A stretch of DNA of 5,690 nt from a virus: IMG/VR virus record IMGVR_UViG_3300045988_000106, positions 1 to 5,690 of that record. One strand, 5' to 3'. The position numbers were made by a program, and so were the translations under genes. Of the stretch, positions 3,189-4,704 are shown piece after piece. The notes below the pieces were generated by a model that was given only the letters and a program-made list of their open reading frames with translations, did not search any database and was not told the DNA's origin. Position 1 is the first letter of the stretch. Every line of letters begins with the position of its first letter.

Positions 3189-3279
3189 TTGTTTTTTGGT
3201 TTGAATGGCGCTTTAGCGCCTTGCCGTGCGGAGCGCATGCGGAGCTCGGCTAATCCATTCATTGTTAGCGCTGTGCGCG

Positions 3280-3454
3280 TTTTCAACACTTTCAACACTT
3301 TCAACAGGTTTTCCACAAAATGTTGCACAATGATTTTCGTCATTTTGACGGACTTTCAACAATTCAACAAGTTTTCAACAAAACTTTCAACAGTGTTTTT
3401 TGCTTTTTATTTACGTTTTAGCGTTAAATTTTAGTGCTTTTCAACTTTTCCACA
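3280..3454 (+). repeat. Array of 11 direct, same-orientation 9-mers YTTTCAACA / TTTTCCACA (iteron-like or DnaA-box-like)
   Basis: The core TTCAACA occurs at 3282, 3291 and 3300 (three exact tandem 9-bp units), and at 3355, 3363, 3374 and 3386. Variants are TTCCACA at 3311 and 3448, TTGCACA at 3323 and TTCAACT at 3440. The 9-mers at 3309..3317 and 3446..3454 are TTTTCCACA. Confidence 0.9.
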
Positions 3455-3492
3455 TTGCCTACTACTACTCCTACAACAAGTTATATATTATA

Positions 3493-3524
3493 CGGCGCTT
3501 GTGAGCTTGCGAACAATAGCGCCG
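3493..3524. other. Hairpin: CGGCGCT / AGCGCCG 7-bp stem, with 3 further bp after a 2-nt bulge
   Basis: 3493..3499 pairs with 3518..3524, and 3500..3502 pairs with 3513..3515. It sits next to a - strand TATAAT (3492..3487) that has TTGTTC (3516..3511) 18 nt upstream. Confidence 0.55.
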
Positions 3525-3531
3525 AAGAGCA

Positions 3532-3574
3532 CGCGCGTGCGCGCGTGCGCGTTTCGCGCGCGTGCGCACGCGCG
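3532..3574. other. Very stable GC hairpin: 20-bp stem, TTT loop, built from alternating purine-pyrimidine sequence
   Basis: 3532..3551 pairs base by base with 3574..3555. There are 18 Watson-Crick pairs and 2 G-T pairs, and the loop is 3552..3554. The arms (3529..3551 and 3555..3574) alternate purine/pyrimidine without a break and are almost entirely G/C, which is out of character with the rest of the genome. Confidence 0.85.
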
Positions 3575-3592
3575 ATGAAGTATAGCTATTTG

Positions 3593-3610
3593 ATAGACTG
3601 AATAGACTGA
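3593..3610. repeat. Tandem direct repeat, 2 x ATAGACTGA
   Basis: 3593..3601 is identical to 3602..3610. It is preceded by the 8-bp palindrome ATAGCTAT (3582..3589). Confidence 0.8.
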
Positions 3611-3633: not shown

Positions 3634-3666
3634 TAGCCAAGTACTTACTTGATAGGTACTTGGCTA
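3634..3666 (-). terminator. Hairpin 18 nt downstream of the VP4 stop; possible intrinsic terminator
   Basis: The 11-bp perfect stem is TAGCCAAGTAC (3634..3644) / GTACTTGGCTA (3656..3666). On the - strand it is followed by TTATCATTTAAG, an interrupted U-rich tract. Confidence 0.4.
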
Positions 3667-3684
3667 GGTGACACCATGACACTG

Positions 3685-4704
3685 TTAAAGTGTCCCTCTC
3701 TTCTTCATCTGCTTCTTTATCACTCTCTCTTTCGTTTTACATTGTTCTTCAAAGTCTGCATTTTCGTACTTTAGTTTGTTTTCTGCTATTGCTGCTGCTT
3801 GTCTGTTCTGTTTAATCCTCCACAATCTTTGTGGGTTTTCTGCTTCCATCATTTTTTCATAATAACGTGGAATTTGTGCGTGTTTGCCGTTTGTGCATTG
3901 GATATATCCTTGCCTCCAGATTTCTTCTTTGTGTTCTTGATAGTAGTGGTCTCCCAGTCCCGGTTTAAGACTCATGCATGCAAAAGGCTTTTGTTGCCCT
4001 AGTTCGTAGTATGCGTTTGCTTTCTGCCCGTCTATCTCGTACATTTTCTTCGTGACGTATCCTGCAACATATCTATAGGTTTCCGGTACTGCTTGAGCTA
4101 TCTGTATTTGACCCATGCCCCATAGGTTTTCTAGCCATTTACTTGTGAAATATCCGTTGTGTTGTTTTTTGTATAGATGTTCTAGGTCTGTTGGTTTCCA
4201 CCCATATAAAATCATATGGTAATGTGGCCTAGCTGTTTGTTCTCCGTACTCTCCCGCTACAAAATAGCGTAATTTGCCCTTATAAGCTTTTCTGAGACGT
4301 TTTAAGAACTTTTGAACGTCAGTATACAGCAACGTTTGGACGCTTTCAGGGCGCTTCTCTCCCGGTTTCCAGACGTATTGTACTTTTCGCATGATTTCAC
4401 CTGTGTTTACTATCATGCCCGGTATATGGTCATCGTCATAAGTCAATGTGATAAACCAAACTTCTTCTCTTGGATAGTCTCGTGCTTCTAATTCTATTCG
4501 TGTTGTCCAGTCCTCTCTTTGTCTGATTCTGCATCCGATGCACTGCCCGCATGGTATTAGCATGACATTTTTTCTATACATCAAATCTTCATACTTTAGC
4601 TGTTTTCCCGCTAACTGAGAATAGCGGGAGAGTGAATACACCCTCCCGCTAATGTTTTTTTCGTTAGGGTTGTACAGCCGTATTAACGGTTTGTAACAAC
4701 TCAC
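3685..4704 (-). CDS. VP4: Replication initiation protein VP4 (phiX174 A-like HUH rolling-circle endonuclease), 339 aa
   Basis: It has the (GTG)MSCYKPL N-terminus, the Cys cluster PCGQCIGCRIRQREDWTTRIELE, FITLTYDD, the HUH motif ARPHYHMILYG and the catalytic Tyr motif YRYVAGYVTKK. This is the canonical Microviridae Rep motif set. The start codon is GTG at 4704..4702, with AGGTGA 9 nt upstream, and it overlaps the VP2 TGA stop (GTGA). Confidence 0.93.
   Translation of the reverse strand: MSCYKPLIRLYNPNEKNISGRVYSLSRYSQLAGKQLKYEDLMYRKNVMLIPCGQCIGCRIRQREDWTTRIELEARDYPREEVWFITLTYDDDHIPGMIVNTGEIMRKVQYVWKPGEKRPESVQTLLYTDVQKFLKRLRKAYKGKLRYFVAGEYGEQTARPHYHMILYGWKPTDLEHLYKKQHNGYFTSKWLENLWGMGQIQIAQAVPETYRYVAGYVTKKMYEIDGQKANAYYELGQQKPFACMSLKPGLGDHYYQEHKEEIWRQGYIQCTNGKHAQIPRYYEKMMEAENPQRLWRIKQNRQAAAIAENKLKYENADFEEQCKTKERVIKKQMKKRGTL

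Follow-up and report, generated by a model that had tools for sequence, protein, structure and literature searches.

The complementary-strand origins of single-stranded DNA (ssDNA) coliphages are of several types: the oric hairpins of G4 are used by primase, phiX174 has an n′/PriA site, and hairpins B and C of f1/M13 are used by RNA polymerase. Single-strand origins (sso) are orientation-specific, depend on structure rather than on sequence, and are mostly found upstream of the double-strand origin (PMC4595007). The element considered here is a GC-rich hairpin (GC hairpin) at positions 3529-3574, + strand, of the IMG/VR virus record IMGVR_UViG_3300045988_000106. The whole stretch analyzed, 5,690 nucleotides (nt), is called the window and contains a gokushovirus genome, circular and 5,635 nt long, plus a terminal redundancy of 55 nt. 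All its recognisable genes are on the − strand, the + strand of the window being antisense to every one of them. The comparison of related genomes indicates that the GC hairpin is a selected structure, with pairing kept while the primary sequence drifts, and with good confidence a conserved hairpin that acts on that one (+) strand. With about even chances, it would be a structured single-strand signal, probably for complementary-strand synthesis, i.e., a sso or part of one.

In the window, two unbroken runs of alternating purines and pyrimidines, mostly CG, at 3529-3552 (24 nt) and 3555-3574 (20 nt), make the two arms of a CG/TG hairpin. The stem pairs 3532-3551 with 3555-3574, two 20-nt arms that are 90% complementary, with 18 Watson-Crick and 2 G-T pairs around a TTT loop (3552-3554); recounting of arms and pairs gave the same figures as the original prediction, which had been made from the sequence alone. 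The composition, also claimed there to be foreign to the genome, is about 83% G+C over 46 nt versus 43.7% in the whole genome. When 3480-3590 was folded as DNA, the + strand gave −41.1 kcal/mol (z = −5.4) and the − strand −35.9 kcal/mol (z = −3.3). In 60-nt sliding folds of the whole circle, the GC hairpin reached −32.0 (+) and −27.3 (−) kcal/mol, with a runner-up at −14.8 and a genome mean of −4.1 (standard deviation 3.3) kcal/mol. So, the GC hairpin is by far the most stable local fold of the genome, as had been anticipated. By sequence, the 24- and 20-nt runs correspond to the definition of Z-DNA-forming tracts (alternating, preferably CG, about 12 bp or more). They do not correspond to that of an intrinsic terminator, which has a T tract directly 3′ of the stem: none occurs on either strand, according to the window sequence and a promoter/terminator scan, so that the earlier statement that this is not a classical terminator stands.

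The conservation of the GC hairpin was analyzed in a set of 174 genomes, obtained by scanning IMG/VR with the invariant motif of another hairpin, H1 (see below), and by adding close VP4 relatives. Since H1 and not the GC hairpin was the query, the genome set does not depend on the latter. The twin-arm element was present in 155 of the 174 genomes, in 95 distinct sequence versions, and so characterises a large clade of gokushoviruses from human and pig gut. Exceptions in the clade are clean deletions, remnants or one-arm truncations, and in genome L032 the arms are fused into a single unbroken alternating run of 38 nt. The 11 aligned GenBank relatives, which come from various laboratories and hosts, all show two alternating arms of about 20 nt separated by a short non-alternating centre, with differing sequences. 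Of 42 clade genomes, 38 have GC-rich alternating runs, versus 4 of 78 other gokushoviruses, in which they are lone short runs. The central break in the alternation is retained in 89 of the 95 versions, and the loop is TT, TAT, AT, C or T in relatives.

Compensatory changes, which the original prediction proposed to seek in the intergenic regions of related microviruses, were found at 12 of the 20 pairs. With 20 representative sequences, RNAalifold gave a 20-pair stem at −42.1 kcal/mol in which these 12 pairs show CG↔UA or GC↔AU replacements, and 99.5% of the cells are paired. The 12 double-change pairs compare with 5.1 in shuffled alignments, none of 500 shuffles reaching 12, and with 2 and 6 in controls slid by 2 nt. 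Over the 95 versions, the 1,932 pairs comprised 1,359 C-G, 171 T-A, 368 G-T, 25 A-C and 9 other pairs, the last being the only ones that do not join a purine to a pyrimidine. An A was opposite T in 87% of cases, while about 29% was expected from composition. Pair changes were of the transition type only, with no C-G to G-C flips in 390 cells, and a stem slipped by 2 nt in register would still be 90–93% paired. Such a conservation of structure over sequence, with 95 sequences for one fold and 12 of 20 pairs compensatory, is what is generically expected of a sso.

Concerning strand specificity, the 57 variants first examined fold without exception better on the + strand (mean −23.7 versus −17.7 kcal/mol), and the consensus of the reverse-complement alignment reached just −5.6 kcal/mol with 10 pairs, versus −42.1 kcal/mol on the + strand. 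Composition-corrected ratios of observed to expected pairs were 3.1 for T-A, 0.76 for G-T and 0.18 for A-C, and became 2.6, 0.76 and 0.29, respectively, when one sequence per cluster was used. A-C is thus depleted about four times more than G-T. The pairing is maintained on the + strand only, where G-T is tolerated and A-C purged. T exceeds A on the strand of H1 in 109 of 110 genomes, including five with an inverted iteron block. The single orientation expected of a generic sso is seen in this evolutionary signature only, the orientation being tied to the strand of the nick motif in the same 109 of 110 genomes.

The strand asymmetry bears on the possibility that the element acts at the duplex level, its alternating tracts flipping to Z-DNA or extruding a cruciform in the supercoiled replicative form, with the effect of absorbing supercoils and so tuning the melting of the Rep origin, or of insulating the VP4 unit from the downstream unit. 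The two long tracts, mostly CG, would suit such a role, as would the vicinity of the putative origin, and so would the alternation strictly held in the clade through transition-type changes, for which a plain hairpin has no need. Z-DNA, however, requires no complementarity between arms, yet A faces T three times as often as composition predicts, and the central break conserved in most versions would be a cost to it. A cruciform would penalise G-T and A-C alike, and its consensus fold would not be confined to one strand. Constraints of both kinds are symmetric and do not fit a strand-asymmetric signature, so that a duplex-level element, although the foremost alternative, is considered unlikely. 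The earlier suggestion of a Z-DNA-prone element is thus correct as to the sequence, but Z-DNA alone explains neither the arm covariation, nor the break in alternation, nor the asymmetry of strands.

The strand on which the GC hairpin is conserved is also that of H1 (3634-3666, + strand), a hairpin with a covarying stem and an invariant loop, cttaCTTGATAg, which is the candidate nick site of the Rep protein VP4. The GC hairpin always lies 5′ of the CTTGATA of this loop on the same strand, at 18–193 nt (median 74; 74 in the window). This is the generic placement of a sso, non-coding and just upstream of the double-strand origin, provided that H1 is that origin. The H1 loop ACTTGATA(T) matches the phiX174 origin, whose GenBank record places the start of viral-strand synthesis at the A of CAACTTG/ATATT (the slash marks the cut) on the coding strand, and CTTGATA is also found in the origin sequence of pC194. 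By analogy with phiX174 CAACTTG/ATA, the cut in H1 is predicted at G3651/A3652. The H1 stem covaries, with A-T, C-G and T-A at one position. Directly 3′ of H1 is a conserved box, AGGTGACACC (3666-3675, + strand), which in other gokushoviruses is replaced in position by ACTGACA or AGGTGACA. The box is followed by a hairpin H2 (GACAC-TGTTAAA-GTGTC, 3678-3694, + strand) with the VP4 stop codon in its loop; an equivalent of H2 is present 3′ of the box in genomes L338 and L334. Compared with origins of the phiX174/pC194 type, H1 has an invariant, loop-exposed and box-flanked motif, with predicted cleavage, in a genome that encodes a Rep of the right family. From these features we infer that rolling-circle synthesis by the Rep VP4 starts at H1. 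The original prediction had offered the GC hairpin itself as a Rep recognition signal, a role for which the invariant CTTGATA-loop hairpin at 3634-3666 is a better fit.

Homologues of H1 were found by descriptor search in ten other gokushoviruses (L313, L338, L334, L312, L360, L314, L320, L327, L321 and L331), which show a stem, a (T)ACTTGATAT loop, the other half of the stem and then ACTGACA or AGGTGACA; L338 has 12 nt identical to phiX174, AACTTGATATTA. MAFFT/RNAalifold misaligned the 3′ arms of these distant homologues and returned no structure. All ten modules are on the coding strand, in the spacer between VP3 and VP4. In the clade of the window, H1 is on the non-coding strand in each of the 114 genomes with a clear VP1 strand, and no coding-strand alternative to H1 exists in the window. 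A descriptor search found no H1-type element in SpV4, Chp2 or phiMH2K, which were discarded as origin references: the CTTGATA matches of SpV4 and phiMH2K are in coding DNA and have no stem-and-box context, and Chp2 has no CTTGATA match. In a search for prophages or hosts among 185,579 bacterial and archaeal genomes, the H1 loop pattern gave 90 matches, about the chance level, none of which, a 5.9-kb Enterococcus contig included, has GC arms or resembles the window. The idea that TATAATATATAAC could be a dif/XerCD integration site was also rejected, the match to the dif sites of E. coli and B. subtilis being poor by eye and no prophages having been found; such elements go unmentioned in an eLife paper on dif motifs of gokushoviruses.

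When IMG/VR was scanned with a permissive (YG)n twin-arm pattern, most matches were CG/TG microsatellites of large contigs, but there were also three distant gokushoviruses, with genomes of 4.6–4.7 kb and VP1 35–39% identical to that of the window, which contain a twin-arm alternating CG/TG hairpin in the VP3-VP4 spacer (L391, 917-954; L392, 4012-4051; L435, 4640-4682). In all three the wobble-tolerant strand is the coding strand. L392 has, 3′ of the GC hairpin and on the same strand, an H1-type hairpin and a ACTGACACC box, and L435 contains a second, smaller copy of the hairpin about 130 nt downstream. Taken together, the arrangement of L392 and that of the window clade indicate that the order GC hairpin, nick hairpin and box is a shared module, of which, to judge from these sequences, only the orientation relative to the genes differs in the window clade.

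This orientation matters, because the sso reading fits only if the packaged strand is antisense. It is moderately favoured here that the clade, this genome included, packages the strand antisense to all genes, with a replication module inverted relative to other gokushoviruses. The arguments are the orientation of the phiX174-type origin, the fact that both hairpins are conserved strand-specifically, a codon usage that prefers NNA to NNT, and an excess of C-to-T changes on the non-coding strand. Phages with ssDNA normally prefer NNT codons, which has been ascribed to C-to-T pressure on the packaged strand (PMC3278643). The T share at 4-fold sites, 0.49 in Chp2 and 0.65 in SpV4, fits that preference, while the coding strand of this genome has 0.52 A and 0.15 T at such sites. 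Substitutions at 4-fold sites were polarised with sister pairs plus an outgroup. On the coding strand, G-to-A amounted to 0.196 per site versus 0.071 for C-to-T in VP4 plus VP2 (45 pairs), and to 0.139 versus 0.053 in VP1. This is a C-to-T excess of 2.75-fold per site on the non-coding (+) strand, a figure that comes from the window clade alone. Base-composition skew was discarded as a stand-alone test of polarity and is used here as support only: the 4-fold AT skew of 78 other gokushoviruses (L282-L361) spans −0.87 to +0.88 and shows no correspondence with the strand of the origin hairpin. The genome of phiMH2K is also A-rich and G-poor at 4-fold sites. Neither antisense packaging nor negative-sense genomes in Microviridae were described in the literature searched.

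If the antisense strand is packaged, the following mechanism can be proposed. VP4 would nick H1 on the + strand, which would be displaced and then packaged. The GC hairpin, present also in the infecting DNA, would most likely be all or part of the site at which host enzymes prime the complementary strand. Its position just upstream of the nick would make it single-stranded only near the end of a leading-strand round, as is the case in most rolling-circle plasmids. With alternating CG/TG, the stem survives register slips of 2 nt, and the duplex replicative form has the potential to adopt Z-DNA or a cruciform there. The original prediction of a signal in packaged ssDNA is sustained insofar as the element is conserved in structure, specific of one strand and located in the replication region; it holds only for a packaged antisense strand, and the question of which strand is packaged had not been considered.

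Several observations weigh against a role in complementary-strand synthesis. In the first place, an antisense packaged strand is required, contrary to the textbook description of Microviridae, a family in which, according to one paper (PMC3394797), complementary-strand genes are essentially unknown. Second, the sequence hallmarks of characterised sso, namely CS-6/RSB, a promoter mimic or a conserved primase trinucleotide, were not found in the hairpin. Third, the hairpin is missing or shortened in L074 (= L243), L280, L281, L231, L041, L095 and L250, so it may be dispensable, or these may be hairpin-deletion artefacts of amplification or assembly. Fourth, strict alternation exceeds the need of a plain hairpin, while the H1 stem does show covariation of the transversion type; this hints at an extra or different constraint. 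Finally, the genome-wide composition bias alone would give about as large an excess of T over A in the arms, so that only the analysis of pairing partners separates selection from bias.

A different role of the same strand at a single-stranded stage would likewise be supported by the strand-specific conservation and by the fixed site 5′ of the nick hairpin. The GC hairpin could stop a rolling-circle round or aid its termination, be a landmark for Rep or for the packaging motor, contact or condense the genome in the capsid, or protect the nick region, and in all these cases the non-conserved loop would mean recognition by shape. This seems improbable, because no known microvirus needs such a signal besides the origin itself, whereas complementary-strand priming is the one step that all ssDNA phages must solve via a structured site (PMC9865509).

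Still less probable is that the hairpin works as RNA of the gene strand, within the 3′ untranslated part of the VP4 mRNA, as a terminator devoid of U tract, a roadblock or an mRNA stabiliser that separates VP4 from the peptidase promoter. Its location suits this, the VP4 stop being 110 nt before it and a promoter (3188-3160) after it, the mRNA-sense RNA of this genome folds there at −39.1 kcal/mol, and in the distant L391, L392 and L435 the better strand is the coding one. Across the clade, however, the consensus of the mRNA strand is the weak one, with A-C mismatches tolerated. There is no T tract, whereas a canonical hairpin-plus-T-tract terminator follows VP1, and the orientation of the hairpin tracks H1 and not the genes. 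The absence of any function, the GC hairpin being a slippage-prone, self-complementary CG/TG microsatellite or a sequencing or assembly artefact, would account for its tolerance of 2-nt register shifts, for the few genomes that do without it and for the commonness of microsatellite-like CG/TG tracts in unrelated large viral contigs, but it is highly improbable and can be considered largely excluded by the fixed position, the two-arm design with its central break and the comparable arm lengths, which hold in 155 of 174 genomes drawn from many studies, by the presence of the element in the 11 GenBank relatives, by compensatory changes above shuffled and slid controls, and by the depletion of A-C. 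Such long tracts, with periods of 6–8 (e.g., GCGCGTGC repeats), are frequent in IMG/VR contigs L363-L441.

The sole long non-coding region of the genome (3170-3684), which separates the VP4 stop from the peptidase gene, contains the GC hairpin and other elements. The original prediction had paired it, in the manner of f1, with a neighbouring GGCGC...GCGCC hairpin (3493-3524, + strand) and with promoter-like hexamers on the − strand, TATAAT (3492-3487) and TTGTTC (3516-3511), 18 nt apart. The neighbour does fold as claimed and both hexamers are present in the sequence. Nevertheless, that slot is variable in the relatives: the hairpin is the same in L008 and L012, is replaced by a CCCCTT/AAGGGG hairpin in L003, L005, L007 and L009, and is absent from L004, L006, L010, L011 and L013. 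It is thus not a conserved partner of the GC hairpin. TTGTTC, which lies within this variable hairpin, has 3 of the 6 consensus positions of a −35 box, and the pair of hexamers stays below the threshold of the promoter scan, so the f1-like arrangement was abandoned. The same scan found no + strand promoter able to give antisense RNA over the GC hairpin.

Between the GC hairpin and H1 (3589-3610, + strand) there is a degenerate second nick-like motif, TTTGATAG, with a direct repeat, ATAGACTGA, in two copies. The motif occurs in part of the clade only and reads ACTTGATAGACTGAATAGACTGA / ACTTGATAG in KX513868; L006 has a further CTTGATAG in the loop of a CCCCTC/GGGGGG hairpin. On the other side, the variable slot is flanked by a conserved block B1, CCTACTACTACTCCTACAACAAGTTATATATTATA (3458-3492, + strand), which is preceded by an array of TTTCAACA-type iterons (3279-3455, + strand) with two exact matches to the DnaA-box consensus, TTTTCCACA, at 3309 and 3446. 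Iterons and conserved block CCTACTACTACTCCTACAACAAGTTATATA (3279-3492) are inverted as a unit with respect to H1 in L016, L045, L066, L090, L231 and L269. Since the iteron orientation relative to H1 is not fixed, the array probably acts in duplex DNA, and the pattern suggests that 3279-3492, with its AT-rich palindromic boundary, is bound by protein as duplex and irrespective of orientation. Farther on, a GC-rich patch at 3205-3280, upstream of the peptidase promoter, contains small palindromes and repeats (GGCGCTTTAGCGCC, TGCGGAGC twice, and GTGCGCGTTT), the last of which recurs at 3545-3554, within the GC hairpin.

The closest GenBank records to this genome are human and pig gut gokushoviruses with 77–85% identity. 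The genes, all on the − strand, include VP1, the major capsid protein, which runs from 1599 across the junction to 5609 (Pfam Phage_F, E = 4e-133), VP2 (5570-4701), the Rep VP4 (4704/4581-3685; Pfam PF23343, the phiX174 gene A / pC194 RepA superfamily), a peptidase M15 (3169/3133-2744), and VP5 and the scaffold protein VP3. The promoter scan gave a sigma-70-like promoter, TTGACG-17-TATCAT with a TG (3188-3160, − strand), for the peptidase and the downstream genes, which places transcription on the − strand. The peptidase open reading frame, as listed, starts at ATG 3169, within the −10 region of this promoter; ATG 3133, with GAGGT ahead, is more likely the true start. The canonical intrinsic terminator or attenuator mentioned above, AGCCCGGAGAAATCCGGGCT then ATTTTT (5598-5579, − strand), is located between the VP1 stop and the VP2 start and overlaps the VP2 ribosome-binding region. 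Another fold, at 4596-4655, is the second or third most stable locally in the genome (−13.7 on the + strand and −16.5 on the − strand) and sits between the alternative VP4 starts GTG 4704 and ATG 4581; it could regulate VP4 translation. With Rfam 15, the whole window gave nothing in the region of the GC hairpin, and the sole weak match, Termite-leu at 4596-4655 (E = 0.44), is probably due to chance.

Few ssDNA phages are as abundant in the human and animal gut as gokushoviruses, whose replication origins have so far been undefined. The outcome of this work is a concrete, testable replication module for uncultured phages, in which a nick hairpin and a box accompany a structured single-strand signal, together with a sequence-based call of the packaged strand. 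Were the call correct, a large clade of Microviridae would be negative-sense, the first such members, which would overturn an assumption made at the family level, and the alternating-CG hairpin would serve them as origin of the complementary strand, in this case the coding one. This would bear on strand-specific virome libraries, on models of the mutation spectrum of ssDNA viruses and on synthetic genomes for 'resurrecting' phages. In practical terms, a hairpin of 46 nt with 83% GC is a likely source of assembly deletions and coverage gaps in these phages. The literature searched contains no description of the GC hairpin or of the gokushovirus CTTGATA hairpin-plus-box, and nothing specific on Z-DNA, hairpins or origins in gokushoviruses.

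In comparison with known systems, one likeness is to anelloviruses, small circular negative-sense ssDNA viruses with a GC-rich stem-loop tract in the untranslated region that is assumed to be linked to replication. The GC hairpin shares with it the condition of an extremely GC-rich, hairpin-forming, non-coding tract of a small circular ssDNA virus; however, the viruses and hosts are unrelated and there is no homology. To (CG)n/(TG)n Z-DNA tracts and cruciform-forming inverted repeats it is similar in having two alternating tracts of at least 20 bp, mostly CG, in inverted repeat, and dissimilar in its strand-specific, pairing-dependent signature, which neither of them predicts. The likeness to origins of the phiX174 gene A / pC194 RepA type (CTTG/ATA) concerns H1 and not the GC hairpin: H1 carries ACTTGATA and the genome encodes a Rep of the same superfamily, but the gokushovirus motif is exposed in the loop of a hairpin that has a TGACA box after it, and in the window clade it is on the non-coding strand.

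With the complementary-strand origins of coliphages, the GC hairpin has in common that it is a stable intergenic hairpin of a small ssDNA phage, presumably free of single-stranded DNA-binding protein and able to recruit host priming enzymes (PMC9865509). It differs from them in being on the strand antisense to the genes in the window clade, and from phiX174 and G4 also in position, since their complementary-strand site is far off in the F-G spacer while the GC hairpin adjoins the viral-strand origin. A stable hairpin as in G4 exists in the window, but no conserved trinucleotide (CTG/CTA start) flanks the stem in the alignment of relatives; as to f1/M13, there is no promoter-mimic pair of hairpins, the neighbouring hairpin and the −35 not being conserved. 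Concerning the sso of rolling-circle plasmids and elements (ssoA, ssoT, ssoU, pBAA1, ICEBs1 sso1), the GC hairpin is a single near-perfect 20-bp alternating CG/TG stem and not a long imperfect fold of several stems. The hallmarks of ssoA, RSB in the stem and CS-6 (TAGCGT/A) in the terminal loop, are absent from it, the loop being TTT and variable in relatives; the TAGCGT present at 3419-3424 belongs to a separate, non-conserved hairpin. What the GC hairpin shares with these sso is their general design, as it is non-coding, strongly folded, presumably active on one strand only and conserved in structure more than in sequence (PMC4595007) and, as in rolling-circle replicons, it is placed just upstream of the nick site, where it would be exposed last.

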